Virus record (IMG/VR): IMGVR_UViG_2778260996_000006
From: a virus
Taxonomy: Duplodnaviria; Heunggongvirae; Uroviricota; Caudoviricetes
Reading direction: 5' to 3' (one strand)
Length of the DNA stretch: 26,721 nucleotides
The notes under the pieces were generated by a model, which saw only the letters and a program-made list of their open reading frames with translations, was not told the origin of the DNA and did no database searches. Shown here one piece after another: positions 231-26,662 of this stretch. Within the stretch, counting starts at the first letter, position 1, and each line of letters begins with the position of its first letter. The position numbers were made by a program, and so were the translations under genes.

Positions 231-260
231 CTGAAAACAAAAAACCCGCCAAGTGGCGGG
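231..260 (-). terminator. intrinsic terminator closing the cargo cassette
   Basis: Minus-strand CCCGCC-ACTT-GGCGGG hairpin (plus 245-260) followed by UUUUUGUUUU (rc of 231-244). Confidence 0.6.
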
Positions 261-281
261 TCTACAGGAACAACTCTAAGT

Positions 282-452
282 TTATTTTTTCTGTTTAAAA
301 TTGTCCAACTCAGGTTCTTTAACGCTTTCTGTCATGTAATCCAATCCACCAAAAGGTACTTCAAGCATTATACTGCTTTCATAATCAGCCATGGATTGCT
401 CTGCTTGCGTTGGCTTGCTTTGCTGTGAGTTGTCATTATTTGATGTTGTCAT
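282..452 (-). CDS. small acidic hypothetical protein (56 aa), third gene of AT-rich cargo cassette
   Basis: ATG at 452 three nt after the stop of the upstream membrane-protein gene; TAA at 284-282; same AT-rich composition; below the 60-aa ORF-track cutoff. Confidence 0.4.
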   Translation of the reverse strand: MTTSNNDNSQQSKPTQAEQSMADYESSIMLEVPFGGLDYMTESVKEPELDNFKQKK

Positions 453-455
453 CAA

Positions 456-1010
456 CTATGCCTTATTTATCAAAAGAAAAGTAACCGATAATATGAAAAA
501 ACCGAAAGATAACGCAATTCCTTCAAAAAGATAACGAGCGTAAACTGCCTTTTCTTTATGAAGACTTTCGATCAATTCAACAGCTTTACCATACTGAAAC
601 ATATGGTATCTAAGCGTTTTAATTTTATCACCGTAAAATAAAAAATCATGCTCTTCTTTTCGCTTATGAATAGGCATTTTTGGTATATCTTTCAGTCCCC
701 AAGTACGCCATAGGAAAAAAAAGCACATAACAATACAAACAAAGCACAGATATGCACAAAGTATAGATAATGTTAAAAACCAATTACTCTTTAGCCCACT
801 TTTGAAATCAACAGTCCCAAATACAGCCAGTAGAGCAGAGGTTTCTACAGCTAAAATAGCAAGAAGGTAGTTAACTTTGTCCTCAAGACGACGATATGTT
901 GATTTTGCTTCCTCATATCTATCTTTATAATATGACGAAATAAAATCAGCGCCTATAGTCTCAATTGCCTTTTGTTCTTCTGTTGTATCTATTGACGAAC
1001 GCTTGCTCAT
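456..1010 (-). CDS. hypothetical integral membrane protein (184 aa, about 3 predicted TM segments), AT-rich cargo gene
   Basis: ORF track; hydrophobic stretches LLAILAVETSALLAVFG, WFLTLSILCAYLCFVCIVMCFFFLW and LFEGIALSFGFFILSVTFLLI; visibly lower G+C than flanking tail genes. Confidence 0.6.
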   Translation of the reverse strand: MSKRSSIDTTEEQKAIETIGADFISSYYKDRYEEAKSTYRRLEDKVNYLLAILAVETSALLAVFGTVDFKSGLKSNWFLTLSILCAYLCFVCIVMCFFFLWRTWGLKDIPKMPIHKRKEEHDFLFYGDKIKTLRYHMFQYGKAVELIESLHKEKAVYARYLFEGIALSFGFFILSVTFLLINKA

Positions 1011-1017
1011 TTCTCAA

Positions 1018-1365
1018 TCAACCAACAACTTTCTTACACGGGAAAGAGCCAATAATTTTCGGAGCATCCATGCTGTTCTGCAACAACTGGACGTTCAGGA
1101 AACGCGTTTTAGTGCCAGGTCGATGGATATACTCGAACCCATAATTGTTGCCATCTTTGGCAGGCATCAGGTCCATTTTGATCTGCATGCCTGTACCGTC
1201 TTTACCCAACATTTTTACTTTTTGGGACGTTACTGTTTCGCCATTGATTTTAAATAATGAATCAGGGATCGCATCCATACGAAAGTTGCCGCATTGCATC
1301 GTTATGGTGTTTGCACTTACACCAACAGACACTAATGCCAGCAATGAAAATATCCATCGTTTCAT
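1018..1365 (-). CDS. small secreted/periplasmic protein (116 aa) with cleavable signal peptide
   Basis: Start trimmed to ATG at 1365 (GAGG upstream); N-terminus MKRWIFSLLALVSVGVSA/NT looks like a Sec signal peptide with AxA-like site; no lipobox; two Cys in mature part. Confidence 0.55.
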   Translation of the reverse strand: MKRWIFSLLALVSVGVSANTITMQCGNFRMDAIPDSLFKINGETVTSQKVKMLGKDGTGMQIKMDLMPAKDGNNYGFEYIHRPGTKTRFLNVQLLQNSMDAPKIIGSFPCKKVVG

Positions 1366-1367
1366 TT

Positions 1368-2871
1368 CTATAATCCTCTCTGAAAAGCAGTGCTGGATGG
1401 CATATCCTGCGCACCGCGCGCTTCGCACATCATATCCATGTACCACGCCTGGCCCCTTGTATCGCCAGTGTACATAATCCCGCGCACAATATAAACGCCA
1501 TCCGTTGCGATGCTGGCAGGCTGCGATGTGGTGCCGCTTAGCGTAATATTTCCGTCCGTGTTCTGGTCGGTGATCTGCCCACCAGCCATAGCGATATCGT
1601 TGTTCGACAACGCGGTGCGATATACGGAAGCCTGATCCAGTTGAATGAGCCCATTAACCCGGATGTTCGGATTAATAAGCGCGCGAACGTTTACGCCGTT
1701 GCCGATGGTCTGCTGCGGCATGCCAATAAGCCCGGTAGCGCTGTTGAGCACAATCGCTTCGTGAACATATTCATTATTCGCCACCATCTGGCGCTGACCG
1801 TCTACGAATTGCCATGTTGCGCCACATTGCCCGGCTACGTTATCCATTAGATGCCGCGTCATGCCAAAGAGCACCCGCCCCCGGGGGAATACAGTAGCAG
1901 GCATTTCAGGCGTCAGGCCTTCGGTCGCACCTTTGGCTTCGAAGTCTTTCATCAGCGCACGGTTCACATCAGCGACCGTGTAACCGGCAGCCAGCGTCTG
2001 TGAGGTTATACTGGTGGCAAAAGCCAGATCAGTATCTGCTGCCTGAATCAGGACGTAGGAATCAACCGGACTGTCTTTTCCTGTAACCGAGTAGCGAATT
2101 TCACCGCTGAAAATCAGTCCGTAGTTGCGGCCATCACTCTGGCCCACGTCCGCCGCATCAACCTCCCGCACGATCCCGACGTCGCTTGCCGACACCTCCG
2201 GCGCGATACCGTCGTAACCCGCAATCAGACGCACTTTCGAAAACTCCCGCCCGGTGATTCGGTTCACAGTATCTGCCGAGAGGTTATAAATTTTGATAGT
2301 CCCTACCCGGGACGCGCTGCTGATGTTGAACCAGTCGATCGTAAAGGTCACTTTAAAATCACTTAGCTCAATTCCCTGACCGTTCCCGTCCACAAGCTGC
2401 ATTCACATCAGCGACCGTGTAACCGGCAGCCAGCGTCTGTGAGGTTATACTGGTGGCAAAAGCCAGATCAGTATCTGCTGCCTGAATCAGGACGTAGGAA
2501 TCAACCGGACTGTCTTTTCCTGTAACCGAGTAGCGAATTTCACCGCTGAAAATCAGTCCGTAGTTGCGGCCATCACTCTGGCCCACGTCCGCCGCATCAA
2601 CCTCCCGCACGATCCCGACGTCGCTTGCCGACACCTCCGGCGCGATACCGTCGTAACCCGCAATCAGACGCACTTTCGAAAACTCCCGCCCGGTGATTCG
2701 GTTCACAGTATCTGCCGAGAGGTTATAAATTTTGATAGTCCCTACCCGGGACGCGCTGCTGATGTTGAACCAGTCGATCGTAAAGGTCACTTTAAAATCA
2801 CTTAGCTCAATTCCCTGACCGTTCCCGTCCACAAGCTGCAGCTCGAAATGTCTCATCCAGTTCTGTGACAT
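1368..2871 (-). pseudogene. distal tail/baseplate-hub-like protein, reading frame broken by an internal 439-bp tandem duplication
   Basis: ORFs 2368..2871 and 1368..2402 carry the same 146-aa segment; removing one repeat copy restores a single ORF of about 354 aa. Confidence 0.6.
1963..2840. repeat. perfect tandem direct duplication, 2 x 439 bp (1963-2401 and 2402-2840)
   Basis: Base-by-base comparison shows identity over both copies; flanks differ (1962 g vs 2401 a; 2402 t vs 2841 g). Confidence 0.9.
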
Positions 2872-17279: not shown

Positions 17280-17804
17280 TTACCGGGACTGTTCTATTTG
17301 TCGGACACCAGCCAACTGGTTATTCGCCTTCTCGATGGCTGCCAACAGTGGGTTAATCCACAGAACAGCCTGGCAATATGTCAACGTTCTGGTGGTAGTG
17401 GCACGATCACCGGCTGAGTCAATGTCCCCGGAATCGGCGTGCAATGCGCTGGCGCGTAAACGGTTCGCGTAGTTGAGCAACCCGACAGCAATATCAACAG
17501 GAACAGGGAAATCACAGTTCTTTTCACGGAGCAGAACCTCACGGTATTTGATGACTGTCTTCTCGTGACCGATGTCGACCAGAGAATTTAATCGGCTTGC
17601 GTTTTCTGCTATCTGGTTAAAACGATTGAAGTTTAATGCCTGATTAGCTATCACTTTCCCTTGATATTCAGCTTCACCTTCCGCTTTATCAGCCCGCAAC
17701 TTTTCTGCCTGATACTTGCTGTGGTAATGGTTTGCAGACCAGACGAGCGCCCCAAAGGCAGAGAAGAAAAATGCCGCGATGACAATCTTATAAGTCAGCT
17801 TCAT
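17280..17804 (-). CDS. Rz: i-spanin (Rz-like)
   Basis: N-terminal TM anchor, periplasmic body, position after endolysin, embedded lipoprotein ORF. Confidence 0.7.
   Translation of the reverse strand: MKLTYKIVIAAFFFSAFGALVWSANHYHSKYQAEKLRADKAEGEAEYQGKVIANQALNFNRFNQIAENASRLNSLVDIGHEKTVIKYREVLLREKNCDFPVPVDIAVGLLNYANRLRASALHADSGDIDSAGDRATTTRTLTYCQAVLWINPLLAAIEKANNQLAGVRQIEQSR
17381..17527 (-). CDS. Rz1: o-spanin (Rz1-like outer-membrane lipoprotein, 48 aa) embedded in the +1 frame of Rz
   Basis: GTG start with GAGG 9 nt upstream; MKRTVISLFLLILLSGC lipobox followed by Pro-rich mature peptide; missing from the ORF track. Confidence 0.6.
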   Translation of the reverse strand: MKRTVISLFLLILLSGCSTTRTVYAPAHCTPIPGTLTQPVIVPLPPER

Positions 17805-18264
17805 TTACCACCCCACCAGCATCTTTAAACCTGGAAATCAGGTCACCGATTTTATGTTCATACTGACCGTAACCTGCACCAGGTAACGACGCCCAGATAT
17901 TGCTGCAACGGTCGATTGCCTGACGAATATCGCCACGGTCAATCATCGGTAAAGCGCCACGCTCTTTAATCTGCTGCAGCGCCACAGCGTCCTGACTTTC
18001 TGGCGAAAAATCTTTCAGGCCAAGCTGCTTGCGGTAGGCATCCCACCAGCGTGAAAGAAGCTGATACCGGCCTGCGGCTGTTGATTTAAGCTTCGGGTTT
18101 AGCGTGACAAGTTTGCGAGGGTGATCGGAGTAATCAGTGAACAACTCACCTCCGACGATAACGTCATAACCGTGATTACGTGTCGGTTGTCGCCCGTTAT
18201 CCGTTCCTTCTGACCATGCCACCATATCCAGGAAAGCTTTGCGTTGGGAATTTAGTGTCTGCAT
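17788..18264 (-). CDS. R: endolysin, lambda R-type lytic transglycosylase (158 aa)
   Basis: Near-identical to lambda R over most of its length as recalled (NSQRKAFLDMVAWSEGTDNGRQ..., DAVALQQIKERGALPMIDRGDIRQAIDRCSNIWASLPGAGYGQ). Confidence 0.95.
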   Translation of the reverse strand: MQTLNSQRKAFLDMVAWSEGTDNGRQPTRNHGYDVIVGGELFTDYSDHPRKLVTLNPKLKSTAAGRYQLLSRWWDAYRKQLGLKDFSPESQDAVALQQIKERGALPMIDRGDIRQAIDRCSNIWASLPGAGYGQYEHKIGDLISRFKDAGGVVNEADL

Positions 18265-18267
18265 GAA

Positions 18268-18609
18268 TTACTCCTTAGAGCCACCAAACTTGTTACCGAT
18301 TACTCGCATTGCAGCCCCACGAATAGCATCGACACCGATCAGCCCAACACCACCACCAATGGCAACAGAAAGAGATTTAGGCCATCCAACATACTCAAGA
18401 GCGGATGCAAAGGTCAGCGTCAGAGCACCACAGAGCAAAATCTCAAGCGTTTTTCGTTTCCAGCCGCCGCCACCGCCAAAATAGGCAATGCGCAAGCCAG
18501 CCATAACAATTGACATAACCACTGCGCCCAACGGCGTATCTCCACGCCACCAACTTTGTAAGAGTTCCAGTAAGTCAGGCCAGGAATGAGGAGCATTGTG
18601 CATTTTCAT
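18268..18609 (-). CDS. S: class I holin with dual-start (MKM) motif
   Basis: Start trimmed to ATG 18609 (GGAGG upstream); MKM start as in lambda S; lambda-S-like hydrophobic core. Confidence 0.8.
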   Translation of the reverse strand: MKMHNAPHSWPDLLELLQSWWRGDTPLGAVVMSIVMAGLRIAYFGGGGGWKRKTLEILLCGALTLTFASALEYVGWPKSLSVAIGGGVGLIGVDAIRGAAMRVIGNKFGGSKE

Positions 18610-18710
18610 ACTTCCCACCTCCGCCATTACGGGGTGTTGTTGAAAGGCGGGCCCTGCGTATACGCCCGTAGGATTGGGTTATGAGCCGTCCTTCGGTGGG
18701 CCCTGAATAC

Positions 18711-19426: not shown

Positions 19427-19849
19427 TTATGCCGCCGAGCAGCTCCTACGCAAAGTCCTGATAGCCTGAGGCTTTGACTGAACCGACTGATCCATTTCGA
19501 GCACCACATCCAGCATGGCTAAGCAACCGTCAATAAATCCCTCTGCCGCCTGAAGCCTCTTCAGAACGTGGGTGTGAGATACGCCGAGCTTCTCACCCAT
19601 CGCCCGCACGGGCATGGCCTGGACGTAATGCCACTCAAGGAGCGTGCACAGATACGGATCTTTTTTCTTCAGGCAGCTCATAGCGGAGTTGATGATAAGA
19701 CCGTCATTGTCACTGCATTTCAGCCTTCCAGACTGCGTCGCGGGTAGCAGATTCTTAAACCCGGCTGCAACAGGAGGAAAGTAGACGCTACCACCTTCAC
19801 TCGCTGCCCAGCCACCCCAGCGCTCTAAAACCTGTTGAATATTACGCAT
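19427..19849 (-). CDS. Q: late-gene antiterminator Q (140 aa)
   Basis: Close resemblance to enterobacterial prophage Q/QuuD proteins as recalled (QQVLERWGGWAA..., VAAGFKNLL, LKRLQAAEGFIDG); positioned upstream of lysis genes. Confidence 0.85.
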   Translation of the reverse strand: MRNIQQVLERWGGWAASEGGSVYFPPVAAGFKNLLPATQSGRLKCSDNDGLIINSAMSCLKKKDPYLCTLLEWHYVQAMPVRAMGEKLGVSHTHVLKRLQAAEGFIDGCLAMLDVVLEMDQSVQSKPQAIRTLRRSCSAA

Positions 19850-19978: not shown

Positions 19979-20150
19979 CTGTACCAATCTGTACCCACCT
20001 GTACCAGCTCTTTTCAAACCTTTTCCCCAAGCGACTTATATATATATATGGGGTTCTTAGTAATTAGGTTGGTACAGATGGTACAGTTGGTACTGACCTT
20101 TAAATTCAATTAGTTAAAATGTACCAACCTCTATTTTGAGGCTGGTACAG
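19979..20150. promoter_or_regulatory. putative replication origin: CTGTACC/GGTACAG iterons flanking a (TA)n tract
   Basis: Three CTGTACC at 10-bp phase (19979, 19989, 19999), TATATATATATAT at 20037-20049, three GGTAC(A/T)G at 9-bp phase (20071, 20080, 20089), further copies at 20120 and 20144. Confidence 0.45.
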
Positions 20151-22323
20151 GTTGGGACACCGCCTCAAAAATTCGAGTCATTTTCCCCCCAATTCGCCTT
20201 TGGGCACGCTTATACCCGCAATTTTGCAAAACATTACTAATTCGCATTTCTTCGCGTTTTCCGATGCGGTCAGGATTTAGCCCAATCGCATCACGCAAAA
20301 CATCACTTGCGCGTAAAAATTCGCAATTTCGCGGAAGTTCATTAGTCATCAGGTCTGGCGTGTCGAGCCATTTCTCTACCGTTTCAAGCCAAGCATCCTT
20401 GATGGTGTACTGTTCATGGACACTCGCTGCCAGTTGTTCAGCCTCACGGAACTGGATACCCCCCAGACGCTGAAACACCTCACGAGCCTCAGCCCAAAGT
20501 AAAAGGAGATCTCTTTTTATCGCTTTCACGTCGACTTTCGACACTTCCACGGGGAGCCAGCGACGGTTACCAGTCTTGTCCGCAAGGAATTCGTCCTCAT
20601 TGGTGGTACCAACGAACACCAGGCGACGAGGAAACTGGGTGGCGAACTCCCGGTATTTCGGGATCCAGTTTTCGTGAGTACGCGTCACAAACGCTTTGAT
20701 TGACTCCAGCTCTTTGGTATTAAGTCCGCGCAGTTCACCAATCTCTGCCACCAGCCGACCACGCATTTTTCGAGCGAGATCATCGTCTTTTTCGGCAAAA
20801 GAGATTTCAGTAAAAAACGCAGGATCAGGGCTCAGTGCCTCCACTCCGGAAGACTTACCGCAGCCCTGCGGACCAACGAGGATCGGCACCATATCCGCTT
20901 TGATGCCTGGCTCCAGTACTCGCCCCGCCAACGCGGTCCACATGTACATAGACACCGCACGGGTATAAGGCGTGTCGGCTGTACCGAAGTGCGTATGGTA
21001 GAAACATTCGATGCGCGGCACGCCATCCCACTCCAGCCCGTTCAGCCAGGTAATCGCTGAATCGAATGGTTGTTCATCGGCTGCAAGTAACACCACATCG
21101 CGAATAAGTTCACGACCAACAGGTTTAAATCCCCGCTTTTCCATCGTGATGCGCAGGCGCGCATAATCCGCATCGGTGAATGCTCGCCATTGTCCGGATC
21201 CTGCAGAGGCAAACATGATTTCGTCGCGGAACTGGTCAAAGCGAATATCGATGTCCACAAAATCAGGGCGTACTACTGCTTTGGCTGCGTTGCTGATGGT
21301 TGCCTCGATACGCCCCCATTTATCACGCTCGAAAGCAGGCAGCGGTAAAGGTTCCGCCACTTCGGTGCTGGTCAGATCTTCGAAATCGTCGTTGCGGATC
21401 CCGATGGCATTAAGGAAATCTCCGTCATCACGATGCGCACAACTGGCATGCAGGCATTTAAAATGCCCCTGCTCAAAGCCCGCGGTTCCCGCAGGAAAAT
21501 AAGCTGTGCTTGTTGGATCGCCCCCGCTACTGTGGCCGTCTTCAAACGGACAGCGGATATATCGTTCACCATTTGCGCCATCCAGCAGCGTCCAGCCATT
21601 GGCATCAAGATATTCAGCTGTATCATCCGTCGCGCCGGGCGTGAATGCTGATCGGTCGCGCATCTTCGTGTTGCCCGCTTCGGTGGTTACCGACACAGGG
21701 AGTTGTTCAGCCAGGCGCTGCCACAGCGTTTCAAGCTGCTCACCAGTAATAGCCGGAGGTTCATCCGGCAAACCACCGTCCCATTCAATACGCGCGCCGC
21801 TGCTGTGCGTACCACAGGCAACGAACTGCTGCCCGTTCGCCAGCAACTCGATAATGCCCATATCCCCCGCCAGGCGATGGATACGCTTACAGAAATCACC
21901 ATCAACGGCCAGCAGATACAGACACTTATTACTGTTTGCTCGCCAGCGTCGCGGCGGCAACTCCCCCAGAAGTTGCACAAGCGTTTTGCGAATATCTGCC
22001 TGAATGTCTTCATCTTCGCTATCGCAGTCCAGCGCCAGCCAGCCATGGCCTGTACGCACGCAGATGCCATAATCCGGTTCATTCGACCAGCGGGCAAAAT
22101 CATGCTCAGTAACAACATACCCGGTCCATTGAGCAATACCGGTGACCTGGCGGTCCCGGTTATAGCGACTTGGCGTCTTACCCAGCGCTTTCAGTTTACT
22201 ATCAGGGGATATGGTCGCACCGGGGTTACATACAACTGGGAGAAGATGATCAGTTCTCCCCAATACCAGGTCGAAATGAAACCACTCATCAGGCGTAGCT
22301 CCCCATGGTTTGCTATCGGACAT
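20131..22323 (-). CDS. replication primase/helicase, P4-alpha-like (730 aa)
   Basis: N-terminal primase-like region and C-terminal P-loop (GPQGCGKSS) with D5/P4-type NTPase features; adjacent to the iteron array. Confidence 0.75.
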   Translation of the reverse strand: MSDSKPWGATPDEWFHFDLVLGRTDHLLPVVCNPGATISPDSKLKALGKTPSRYNRDRQVTGIAQWTGYVVTEHDFARWSNEPDYGICVRTGHGWLALDCDSEDEDIQADIRKTLVQLLGELPPRRWRANSNKCLYLLAVDGDFCKRIHRLAGDMGIIELLANGQQFVACGTHSSGARIEWDGGLPDEPPAITGEQLETLWQRLAEQLPVSVTTEAGNTKMRDRSAFTPGATDDTAEYLDANGWTLLDGANGERYIRCPFEDGHSSGGDPTSTAYFPAGTAGFEQGHFKCLHASCAHRDDGDFLNAIGIRNDDFEDLTSTEVAEPLPLPAFERDKWGRIEATISNAAKAVVRPDFVDIDIRFDQFRDEIMFASAGSGQWRAFTDADYARLRITMEKRGFKPVGRELIRDVVLLAADEQPFDSAITWLNGLEWDGVPRIECFYHTHFGTADTPYTRAVSMYMWTALAGRVLEPGIKADMVPILVGPQGCGKSSGVEALSPDPAFFTEISFAEKDDDLARKMRGRLVAEIGELRGLNTKELESIKAFVTRTHENWIPKYREFATQFPRRLVFVGTTNEDEFLADKTGNRRWLPVEVSKVDVKAIKRDLLLLWAEAREVFQRLGGIQFREAEQLAASVHEQYTIKDAWLETVEKWLDTPDLMTNELPRNCEFLRASDVLRDAIGLNPDRIGKREEMRISNVLQNCGYKRAQRRIGGKMTRIFEAVSQPVPASK

Positions 22324-23916: not shown

Positions 23917-24066
23917 ATGAAACCTGAACACCTCTATCGACTGACGGGGCGCGATGTTCTCCGTTATCGCCGTAAAAACTTCGATTTGATGACCGGTCTG
24001 GCCGTTGCCACTGCGCTCGGTCTGATCATCACTTTCATTCTCCTTGTTGCGAGGACCACAGTATGA
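23917..24066 (+). CDS. small membrane peptide (49 aa, C-terminal TM helix), translationally coupled to next gene
   Basis: ATG 23917; C-terminal LAVATALGLIITFILLV; stop overlaps next start in ATGA; below ORF-track cutoff. Confidence 0.45.
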   Translation: MKPEHLYRLTGRDVLRYRRKNFDLMTGLAVATALGLIITFILLVARTTV

Positions 24067-24965
24067 GTTTAGAAACCAGTCTCGAACTTAATAATCAACT
24101 TCTGGCACAACATAATGCGCTGCTTGAACGTCTTATCCGCACAATGGCATCAGGTATTGTTATGCATCCTGACACGATTTCACGAGTGCAGGAATGTCGG
24201 GATACAGCAACTGAAACTGAAAATATGTCAGCGGCAATGACACTGGATGATCTGGAGTTCAGCGACGTTATCGCACTGGCTGGTTTCTACCCGGTAGCCA
24301 CCCCTATCACAGAAGACATGCTGCAACGTGCTGTTGCCTACCGTGATGCTGAAGGCGATAAACGAGTAGTTCAGATTGATCCTCTCGACAGCGCATTGCA
24401 GGGCGTCAAACGAGCCAGGGCACTGCATAAACCCGCTCTTCTGGACCTGTCCCGTAACATTCTTAAGTTCTGGGACGACCTGCCAACCATCGGCGAGCGA
24501 CGTGCTTTTGCCGAGCAACTACTTGATGCACCTGCAGATGGGCGTGATGAAGTTAAGCCGAAAAAGGCCAGTAACAAAGATGGAGAACGCACGGGGCCGT
24601 TTTACGTCAAAAATGTATCCGGCACAGCAGCCAGTGAACTCCACACCTTACGCAAGTTGAACGAGATGCTTAAAAAAGGCCATATCGAGATCAACCGTGT
24701 TGAGTACCTTCAGCTGCAGGAAGAATTTGCACGCAGAGACGCAGCAAATTCCAGCCAGAATAATGACGCCAAAGATGACCATACAATTGATTTCGCGGCA
24801 CTACGCAAACAAGCTGAAGGGTTGATCCTCCAGTTAGCAAAAGGGGGTTACCGGGCAGAAGCTATTGCAATTCTGGAAAAACAGGGAGCCAGGAAACTTG
24901 GTGAAGTAACGGATGAAAATCTCGCTGAAGTAATCACCCTGGCTGAAAAAGCACTGGAGGGTTAA
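24063..24965 (+). CDS. hypothetical early protein (300 aa), function unknown
   Basis: ORF track; uniform coding-like composition; no motif recognised. Confidence 0.65.
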
Positions 24966-24967
24966 TC

Positions 24968-26269
24968 ATGCCAGACGTTCATGCACAACTTTCTCCATCA
25001 TCAGCGCATCGATGGATGCGCTGCCCAGGAAGTCTGGCGCTGGAGGCCACACAACCGGATAAAGAAACAACTTTTGCAATCGAGGGCACTGCAGCGCACG
25101 CGCTTGCTGAAAAAGTTCTACGAAACAGGCAAAGCCACCCGGAACACTACGCCGGATGCAATGTTTCTATGTTTCTCGGCTCATACCCCCTTCGCGAAAA
25201 TCCTGATGATACATCTGGCCCACAGGTGGATGATGAAATGGTCGAAGCCGTTGGCCGGTATGTTGATACGGTCTGGACTCTTGCACAGAATAATGAACTA
25301 TTGGTTGAACAACGTGTTGATTTCTCACATATAACGGGGGTGGAAGAATCTTTCGGAACTGCCGACGGCATAATCATCGCTGGTAACGAATTACAAATCC
25401 ACGACCTGAAATATGGCAAAGGCGTCCGCATTGATGCAGAACAAAATGAGCAACTACAACTGTATGCTCTGGGTGCGCTCGAACAATTCAGCATGCTGTA
25501 TGACTTTGAGACTGTAAGATTATTTATTCACCAGCCAAGGCTCAACCACGTTTCAGAATGGTCGTTAACCGTACAGGAACTTCAGTCTTTCGGTGAACGG
25601 GCACAGGAGGCCGCAACCAGTGCGATCCTTGTTCTCAATATTGCTGAATGCGAAGGCATTGAGACACTACCGCTGGAAAACTTCATACCTGGAGAAAAAC
25701 AGTGCCGCTTCTGTAAAGCAAAAGCTATTTGCACTGCCCAGAAAATGCAGCATTTACAAACAGCGGCCAGCGATTTTGAAGATCTGACAAAGCCTGTCAG
25801 CGAAATAATCACCAATGCCAGCGCACGTGTACCTCTGTTAACCATTGAGCAGCTTGCGGAGATCTATAGCCAGGCCGACTTTATTGAATCCTGGCTAAAG
25901 GCAGTACGGGACCGGGTTCACAATGAACTCAATGCCGGACATCCGGTACCGGGGTTTAAACTGGTAACAGGAAAACAAGGTAACCGGGCCTGGAGTGATG
26001 AAGAGGCAGCTCGCGCACTTCTGAAGGACCAGTTCAGGTACAAAACTGAAGAAGTATTCGACTTTAAACTTATTAGTCCCACAAAAGCCGAAAAACTTAT
26101 CAAAAAGGCCAGTCCACGCCGTTGGTCAAAAGTCGAGGCACTGATAACACGAGCTGATGGTAAACCAACCGTCATTCCCGAGTCAGACCCACGCCCCGCA
26201 CTCAATATCAACCCTGTAAATGATTTCGACGACGTATCCGACGATACGCTAACCGCAGACCTCATCTGA
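24968..26269 (+). CDS. PD-(D/E)XK nuclease, Cas4/RecB-like with Fe-S Cys cluster (DUF2800-like)
   Basis: N-terminal [14 protein letters not shown]; catalytic-like GTADG ... [10 protein letters not shown]-terminal C-x2-C-x5-C cluster. Confidence 0.75.
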
Positions 26270-26284
26270 TTTAAGGAAATACCC

Positions 26285-26662
26285 ATGAAACTGAAGCTGA
26301 ACAATGTTCGTCTGGCCTTCCCGTCTCTGTTTGAAGCTAAAACTGTAAACGGCGAAGGCGATCCGCGTTTCTCCGCAGTATTTTTAATGTCTCCCAAACA
26401 CCCACAACTGGAAGAAATCCGTAAAGCTATGAAGCAGGTAGCGAAGGAAAAATGGGGAGAGAAGTGGGAGCCCATTTATAACCAGCTGGAGAAAAAACTC
26501 AATCTGTGCCTGCATGATGGTGATGAAAAAGCAGAGTATGAAGGCTTCCCCGGTAATTTCTTCCTGAATGCTGCTAACAAAGCGCGCCCAGCTGTTCTTG
26601 ATCGCGATCGTTCGCCACTTATTCAGGCTGACGGACGTCCCTATGGTAAGCGTACAGCCTGA
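26285..26662 (+). CDS. DUF2815-like putative ssDNA-binding protein (125 aa, possibly C-terminally truncated)
   Basis: N-terminal VRLAFPSLFEAK resembles DUF2815 proteins as recalled; pairing with the upstream nuclease. Confidence 0.55.
   Translation: MKLKLNNVRLAFPSLFEAKTVNGEGDPRFSAVFLMSPKHPQLEEIRKAMKQVAKEKWGEKWEPIYNQLEKKLNLCLHDGDEKAEYEGFPGNFFLNAANKARPAVLDRDRSPLIQADGRPYGKRTA

Follow-up and report, generated by a model that had tools for sequence, protein, structure and literature searches.

A two-gene membrane protein module in a variable cargo slot of SEN34-like prophages is a candidate anti-phage system

Three genes between the baseplate hub and spike genes

We analysed a 26,721-nucleotide stretch of DNA from a tailed virus (IMG/VR record IMGVR_UViG_2778260996_000006), hereafter the window, and in particular a short run of AT-rich genes near its left end. 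The window represents an E. coli prophage, with its late operon on the minus strand. Three minus-strand open reading frames (ORFs) lie side by side there, at 1018-1365, 456-1010 and 282-452; the second begins 7 nt after the first and the third 3 nt after the second. The original prediction, made from the sequence without database searches, had described them as a cargo cassette of three genes, encoding a signal-peptide protein, a membrane protein with about three transmembrane (TM) segments and a 56-aa acidic protein, the whole closed by a terminator of its own. The ORFs and the character of each product are confirmed. The extent of the cassette is not: the first gene, sigP, is conserved together with the neighbouring baseplate hub gene, and the true cargo is 282-1010, a mobile module of just two genes, one for a TM protein and one for a translationally coupled small protein.

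The TM protein (456-1010, 184 aa, phrog_18554) is a predicted three-TM protein of the inner membrane. Hydropathy places the hydrophobic segments at about residues 48-66, 77-101 and 161-181, and the AlphaFold2 (AF2) model is all-helical (pLDDT 79.6), with helices at 10-66, 77-105, 118-126 and 129-183. The order along the chain is a conserved helix before TM1, with the motif YxERYEEAKxxYRRLEDKVN, then TM1, TM2, a basic cytoplasmic loop and TM3. The small partner (282-452, 56 aa, phrog_18231) has a pI of 4.3 and a net charge of -5. A polar, low-complexity N-terminus is followed by a conserved core, YExxIMxxVPFG[GD]LxxxTES, and the protein has no Pfam, PADLOC or NCBIfam match. As predicted, both genes are far richer in AT than their structural neighbours: the TM gene has a GC content of 0.337, and of 0.25 at third codon positions (GC3), and the small gene 0.368, against 0.53-0.55 and a GC3 of about 0.6 in the flanking structural genes. 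The lowest GC of the entire 26.7-kb window falls in the module, about 4 standard deviations below the mean when measured over 555 nt at a time.

The gene that separates the module from the hub, sigP (1018-1365, minus strand), encodes a secreted protein of 115 aa and forms the left border of the cargo slot. The signal peptide consists of an MKR n-region, a hydrophobic core and a VSA/N cleavage-type site, and the protein has two conserved Cys residues and a small beta-barrel. A sequence profile search found no meaningful match among PDB chains. Assignment as a periplasmic lysozyme inhibitor of the PliC/MliC type was considered and rejected, as the fold resembles unrelated barrels equally well. 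The start codon of sigP lies 2 nt past the hub stop codon, and its GC of 0.425 makes it moderately AT-rich only. The family is large, with 386 protein clusters (phrog_3443), and carries the PGAP name 'STY1065/STY2022 family phage-derived protein'. Because sigP directly follows the hub gene in nearly all SEN34-like relatives, it is a conserved phage gene and not variable cargo. Its product is a secreted protein, not a part of the virion.

A variable cargo slot with a conserved terminator

To place the module among relatives, we surveyed 76 IMG/VR loci that contain both sigP and the spike gene. The interval between the two ranges from 321 to 2355 bp, with a GC of 0.34-0.49, and holds 21 gene architectures. 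The TM/small pair fills 15 of the 76 slots. In relatives whose hub is 93-99% and whose spike is 96-97% identical, unrelated genes take the same position, which is what the original prediction had proposed to look for in related prophages lacking the insert. It had also named the presence of these genes in related phages, at normal GC and as conserved tail components, as one observation that would tell against cargo; sigP is in part such a conserved component, and the TM/small pair is not. The moron layout that it described therefore holds for the two AT-rich genes and for their replacement by unrelated cargo in close relatives, but not for sigP or for the ownership of the terminator.

The terminator is a real intrinsic terminator on the minus strand. 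It had been placed at 231-260; the hairpin and T-run stand, and the position is rather about 233-263, with a stem at 263-242 followed by TTTTTTGTTTT. The hairpin at 242-263 has 9 bp, 6 of them GC pairs, and a predicted energy of -20.2 kcal/mol (z = -2.8). As was claimed, it abuts the ribosome-binding site (RBS) of the next gene: the AGGAG of the spike gene (232-228) follows immediately, and then its ATG (219-217). The same arrangement, AACCCGCC-loop-GGCGGGTTTTTT and then the spike RBS, recurs in relatives with unrelated cargo. Scoring the 75 nt that precede the spike start codon (L034-L113), we found a GC hairpin and T-run ahead of the spike RBS in 76/76 slots, whatever the cargo. By a strict pattern, 66 of these have the CCCGC/GCGGG stem; the other ten differ in the stem, which still pairs, and this suggests selection on structure. 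Since an equivalent hairpin is present in all slots regardless of cargo, the terminator is not the cassette's own. It is a feature of the phage backbone and of the slot.

Several other occupants of the slot are recognisable. One locus (L104) carries a homologue of PD-lambda-1/SNIPE (PADLOC, E = 4e-84). PD-lambda-1, since renamed SNIPE, is a validated defence gene; its product, a membrane nuclease, cuts the DNA of a phage as it is injected (PMC13190303). Eight loci carry a YafO-toxin pair (Pfam, E = 4e-17). Further cargo includes DUF2335, antirepressor-like proteins and several two- and three-gene sets without annotation, and some slot proteins have a candidate Rx4-6H HEPN-type motif, read by eye. 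The slot is thus a hypervariable hotspot of moron or prophage cargo, bounded by conserved sigP on one side and by the conserved terminator and spike gene on the other. The concept of prophage hotspots of antiviral systems comes from work on P2 and P4 (PMC9122126). The slot is like those hotspots, and like morons of the HK97 gp15 type, in its conserved flanks, its swappable low-GC cargo, the terminator at its downstream edge and the known defence genes among the alternatives. It differs from the P2/P4 hotspots in phage group and position, lying between baseplate hub/sigP and spike of SEN34-like myoviruses. Its two conserved borders, the secreted-protein gene at one end and the terminator with the spike RBS at the other, make the slot easy to find by computer. 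Among its roughly 21 architectures there are already a validated defence gene (SNIPE) and a toxin family, which makes it a practical target in the search for new prophage-borne defence genes in Enterobacterales.

The two genes travel together and move independently of the backbone

In every locus examined, a homologue of the small ORF directly follows the TM homologue, usually 1-3 nt past its stop codon, over a range of TM identities from 39 to 100%. Loci with the pair come from E. coli, Klebsiella, Serratia and metagenomes. A tblastn search with the TM protein against 50,697 GenBank phage records gave no match, and our literature search found no paper that mentions the family names or accessions (WP_000044737, WP_000213605, WP_000832849, STY1065, STY2022).

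Identities to the window diverge strongly between the pair and the genes around it. In L021 the hub and the spike are both 96% identical and the TM protein only 52%; in L019 the hub is 88%, the spike 68% and the TM protein 98% identical. The pair is therefore exchanged independently of the phage backbone. In a third locus (L014, 4300-5950), from an unrelated phage, the pair is accompanied by a sigP-like gene, a 3' piece of the hub gene and a 5' piece of the spike gene, all of it embedded among portal-like genes and Mu-like tail genes. This arrangement suggests that the slot was transferred with its flanks, by recombination within them.

A divergent subfamily (L055, L099 and L060) keeps the RRLEDK motif in the TM protein and a VPG..VVTESY core in the partner. 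The TM gene of L060 appears truncated to 94 aa. In the family of the window, the cytoplasmic loop of the TM protein (residues 102-160) carries a charge of +3 to +6 and the partner one of -5 to -8; in the divergent subfamily the signs are reversed, with a loop of -1 or 0 and a partner of 61 aa at +3. Over 13 non-independent pairs, loop charge and partner charge correlate with r = -0.83. Such co-variation is suggestive of direct binding of the partner to the TM protein, though not proof of it.

Remote similarity of the TM protein to PycTM and SLATT effectors

We sought to identify the TM protein by its resemblance to known families. The window protein itself matches the PADLOC model of PycTM (PDLC02365) with E = 2.6e-4 and that of the CBASS 2TM effector with E = 7e-3; the PADLOC library, dated 2023, has no curated threshold for PycTM. 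A profile search of 1.84 billion representatives returned 77 full-length relatives of 157-279 aa. We aligned 72 of the 77 and scanned them against the models, with the reversed sequences as a control. Three PycTM models were matched by 20, 13 and 10 of the 72 (best 2.7e-6), and the CBASS 2TM effector model by three. The reversed sequences gave 0 matches to the PycTM or 2TM models, so the PycTM similarity is not an effect of composition. The PycTM matches cover the pre-TM helix, TM1, TM2 and the loop.

For SLATT the separation is less clean. NCBIfam SLATT_1 is matched by 6/72 relatives, the best at 1.2e-6, and by two of the reversed sequences, the best at 4e-3. A PADLOC RTasSLATT match was rejected as noise, as reversed sequences match that model more often. 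Pfam 8xMP was likewise rejected as the family, with just 2/72 relatives matching; there is no consistent Pfam family. The family profile found no meaningful match among PDB chains, SpoIISA (3o6q) coming up at E = 0.13. Profile and structure searches of the kind proposed with the original prediction gave remote PycTM and SLATT_1 matches at the sequence level, but nothing significant by Foldseek against PDB and BFVD.

Four remote relatives could be viewed in their gene contexts. Three lie in phage late operons and the fourth is uninformative; a nearby cyclase is missing from all. In L029, L030 and L031, TM relatives sit in head-gene operons of gut and Methanobrevibacter phages or prophages, beside capsid genes and MuF-like proteins that carry ADP-ribosyltransferase toxin domains, and each is preceded by an unassigned ORF of 125-134 aa.

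On this evidence the TM protein is a candidate membrane effector, distantly PycTM/SLATT-like. In abortive infection, PycTM is described as disrupting the integrity of the membrane (PMC11224242); SLATT proteins, for their part, are predicted to act as pore-forming effectors or toxins that depend on the signal of a partner (10.64898/2026.04.29.721553). Like PycTM, the TM protein is a small helical membrane protein, and the profile matches occur in the forward direction only, at marginal E-values. It differs in its setting: the PycC cyclase of Pycsar is not beside the TM gene here or in any homologous locus, the module has no cyclic nucleotide monophosphate (cNMP)-binding domain by Pfam, a peptide of 52-64 aa takes the partner's place, and the whole sits in a baseplate operon. 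Because there is no cyclase, the module is not Pycsar. With the SLATT 2TM effectors (SMODS/SLOG-associated; DRT10/UG17, some CBASS) it shares a cytoplasmic helix, two close TM helices and C-terminal helices. However, the window protein itself matches no SLATT model, it has an extra, third TM helix at the C-terminus, and the module has no reverse transcriptase, SMODS or SLOG partner. By curated models it is not assignable as SLATT. By analogy, the module would work most like the PycTM/SLATT effectors, and its organisation is that of SpoIISA/SpoIISB and of classical morons, HK97 gp15 among them.

A proposed membrane effector held in check by a small partner

Taken together, our results lead us to favour, at a probability of roughly 0.45 and so at a little under even odds, that the module is a self-contained pair of a membrane effector and a small cognate regulator, carried by the prophage as cargo, which would permeabilise or depolarise the inner membrane against superinfecting phages. 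In the proposed mechanism the peptide would bind the charged cytoplasmic loop of the TM protein and hold it closed, or tune it. Infection by another phage would lift this control, either because the peptide is lost or titrated away or because the TM protein is triggered directly. Once freed, the TM protein would oligomerise and permeabilise or depolarise the inner membrane, and the infection would be aborted; in a milder variant, the TM protein would block genome entry. The pair would be expressed in the lysogen, where the slot terminator would stop cargo transcripts before they reach the baseplate genes. During the phage's own lytic growth, late transcription would be expected to pass the slot terminator because the phage encodes a Q antiterminator. 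Reading through terminators by means of Q in late transcription is established lambda biology. We count the Q antiterminator, and the lambda-S-type holin found elsewhere in the window, in favour of this effector and regulator interpretation. The same goes for the remote TM relatives that sit in phage late operons with no cyclase, and for the intact state of the cassette between two broken structural genes. That the locus is a host-protective module, as originally proposed, is plausible, and it is now better grounded, both by the forward-only resemblance to PycTM and by the presence of SNIPE and YafO in the same slot.

A number of observations weigh against it. The window protein's own PADLOC match is marginal, the library is of 2023, and there is no significant Pfam or NCBIfam match for this protein; reversed sequences give weak matches to SLATT-type models as well. 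The AF2 monomer, compared by Foldseek with PDB and BFVD, had no match with an E-value under 0.1, and those returned were generic long-helix proteins. The module lacks a cyclase, and it has no domain for cNMP binding or other sensing. A search upstream of it, in the window and in two homologous loci, detected no sigma-70-like promoter; L021 has one weak site, within chance expectation. The TM family is small (12 clusters at 90% identity among 5.8 billion proteins), and truncated TM alleles occur in some genomes (P0006, 15 sequences; P0012). Few independent lineages underlie the charge correlation.

Other explanations start from the same anatomy. The pair might exclude superinfecting phages without killing the cell, the TM protein and its partner blocking entry of the incoming genome as HK97 gp15 or T4 Imm do. 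HK97 gp15 is an inner-membrane moron inside a tail operon, and the TM protein, an inner-membrane moron in a tail/baseplate operon, has that layout; the SNIPE homologue that occupies the slot elsewhere acts at genome injection, and the neighbouring conserved sigP encodes a periplasmic protein. We nevertheless consider non-lethal exclusion unlikely, because the sole detectable similarity is to membrane-disrupting abortive-infection effectors, a coupled soluble partner of complementary charge resembles a toxin regulator more, and nothing akin to the gp15, Imm or Sie families turned up when PHROG, Pfam and PADLOC were scanned. The resemblance to a regulated toxin is taken further by a selfish toxin-antitoxin pair, in which a membrane toxin and a labile small antitoxin would serve addiction or stabilisation with no anti-phage role. 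The closest analogy is SpoIISA/SpoIISB of Bacillus, where a gene for a three-TM toxin is followed by one for an antitoxin of about 56 aa, which binds the cytoplasmic part of the toxin. Gene order and sizes are like those of the module; translational coupling, co-occurrence in all examined loci, the co-varying complementary charges and the YafO toxin pair in the same slot of other phages fit too, as does the weak profile match to SpoIISA. That match is not significant, however, the large cytoplasmic domain of SpoIISA is missing from the TM protein, and a hotspot with a validated defence gene at the same position favours functions in conflict. We think a purely selfish pair quite unlikely, and because many toxin-antitoxin pairs act in abortive infection, this explanation overlaps with that of a regulated membrane effector.

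The remaining two explanations would give the pair a role in the phage itself. As a lysis or late accessory, it would be a holin, antiholin or modulator of lysis timing, made from the Q-dependent late transcript only. An independent promoter was not detected, the pair lies within the late operon and includes a small multi-TM protein, and the remote relatives are found in late operons too. Yet the prophage already has a canonical lambda-S-type holin at 18268-18627 (Phage_holin_3_1, Pfam E = 1e-27), and PHROG and Pfam give no holin-family match for the pair. Relatives with 93-99% identical hubs do without the pair and carry unrelated cargo instead, so the pair is dispensable for the phage life cycle, and a lysis function is very unlikely. 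That the genes are a structural or assembly part of the baseplate seems to us barely credible: the position between hub and spike genes and the conservation of sigP across the phage group would fit, but the TM protein and the sigP product are membrane and secreted proteins, at odds with virion assembly in the cytoplasm, the pair is restricted to a minority of related slots, its GC3 departs from that of the structural genes, and the module has no similarity to baseplate or fibre families in PHROG and Pfam, homology that would have refuted the original prediction by its own terms.

A bolder form of the regulated effector interpretation is one we hold only tentatively and think likelier to be wrong than right. 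The module would be a minimal and self-contained system for abortive infection or exclusion: a pore of the PycTM/SLATT type that has lost its nucleotide-signalling partner or never possessed one, gated directly by a co-translated peptide of about 56 aa that doubles as the infection sensor. The slot would in addition serve as a general defence hotspot not described before, with mostly new systems among its roughly 20 other types of cargo. The gating of small TM effectors in Pycsar, CBASS and DRT systems is still to be explained, and the DRT10 preprint names SLATT activation as a central open question (10.64898/2026.04.29.721553). If the bolder form is true, a two-protein version without cyclase or reverse transcriptase would offer a simpler model for effector gating.

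Disrupted flanking genes and the prophage setting

The left-end region was assigned by megablast to SEN34-like (Brunovirus-like) myoviruses and prophages, and the structural genes on both sides of the cassette are broken. What had been taken for a last small late gene is actually the first 142 nt of a gene for a baseplate (membrane-puncturing) spike of 250 aa, about 47 codons at 78-219 on the minus strand, cut at base 78 by an IS66-family insertion sequence (IS). Translation of the fragment gives MAISDQTRSGDLAETFKSERETTKNQIRVALPGIVQSFDPDAVTAVV, which matches the spikes (250 aa) of 606R2, YP3, SEN34 and E. coli 12009 at their N-terminus and has a weak Pfam match to a spike N-terminal domain. 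The terminal part of the IS (ISEc22-like) occupies 1-77 and ends in GTAAGCG (reverse complement of 72-78); phage homology begins at base 78 by megablast. Bases 1-77 are present in about 1,800 of 5,426 complete E. coli genomes, with 100% identity in more than 1,400 E. coli genomes, and in NZ_AP018808 the match to them adjoins IS66 tnpA, tnpB and ISEc22 transposase genes.

On the other side, the gene described as a distal tail gene is more precisely the baseplate hub (1368-2871, minus strand; Pfam E217_GP41 baseplate hub, E = 6e-5), and it is disrupted. A perfect 439-bp tandem duplication (1963-2401 = 2402-2840), whose length is not a multiple of 3, shifts the frame and splits the gene into ORFs of 167 aa and 344 aa, whereas intact homologues have 354 aa (1065 nt). 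The duplication may have arisen by mutation or may be an artefact of assembly. Four related GenBank phage records annotate the hub as two coding sequences (140 and 213 aa), for example at 4047-5111 of L001 (Escherichia phage vB_EcoM-606R2), which suggests a frameshift or sequencing error in those records.

With the spike cut by the IS and the hub frame shifted by the duplication, the prophage has a defect to either side of the cassette. Despite this, the cassette is intact and matches copies in other E. coli strains at 100% identity; 21 of the 5,426 genomes contain it. Lysogens in which the locus is intact include E. coli O103:H2 12009 (locus tags ECO103_RS32195 and ECO103_RS32200) and ETEC H10407.

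Elsewhere in the window, the minus-strand late operon also encodes a terminase small subunit. Two unassigned ORFs (17280-18264) lie directly downstream of the holin, in the usual endolysin/spanin position. The Q antiterminator is at 19427-19849 and a gene for a VapE-like primase/helicase at 20131-22323, on the minus strand; a CI-like repressor is encoded on the plus strand. An Rfam search of the window found no RNA families. The plus-strand early region (24063-26662) contains an unassigned ORF of 300 aa, a DUF2800/PD-(D/E)XK nuclease and an Enc34-type single-stranded-DNA-binding protein.

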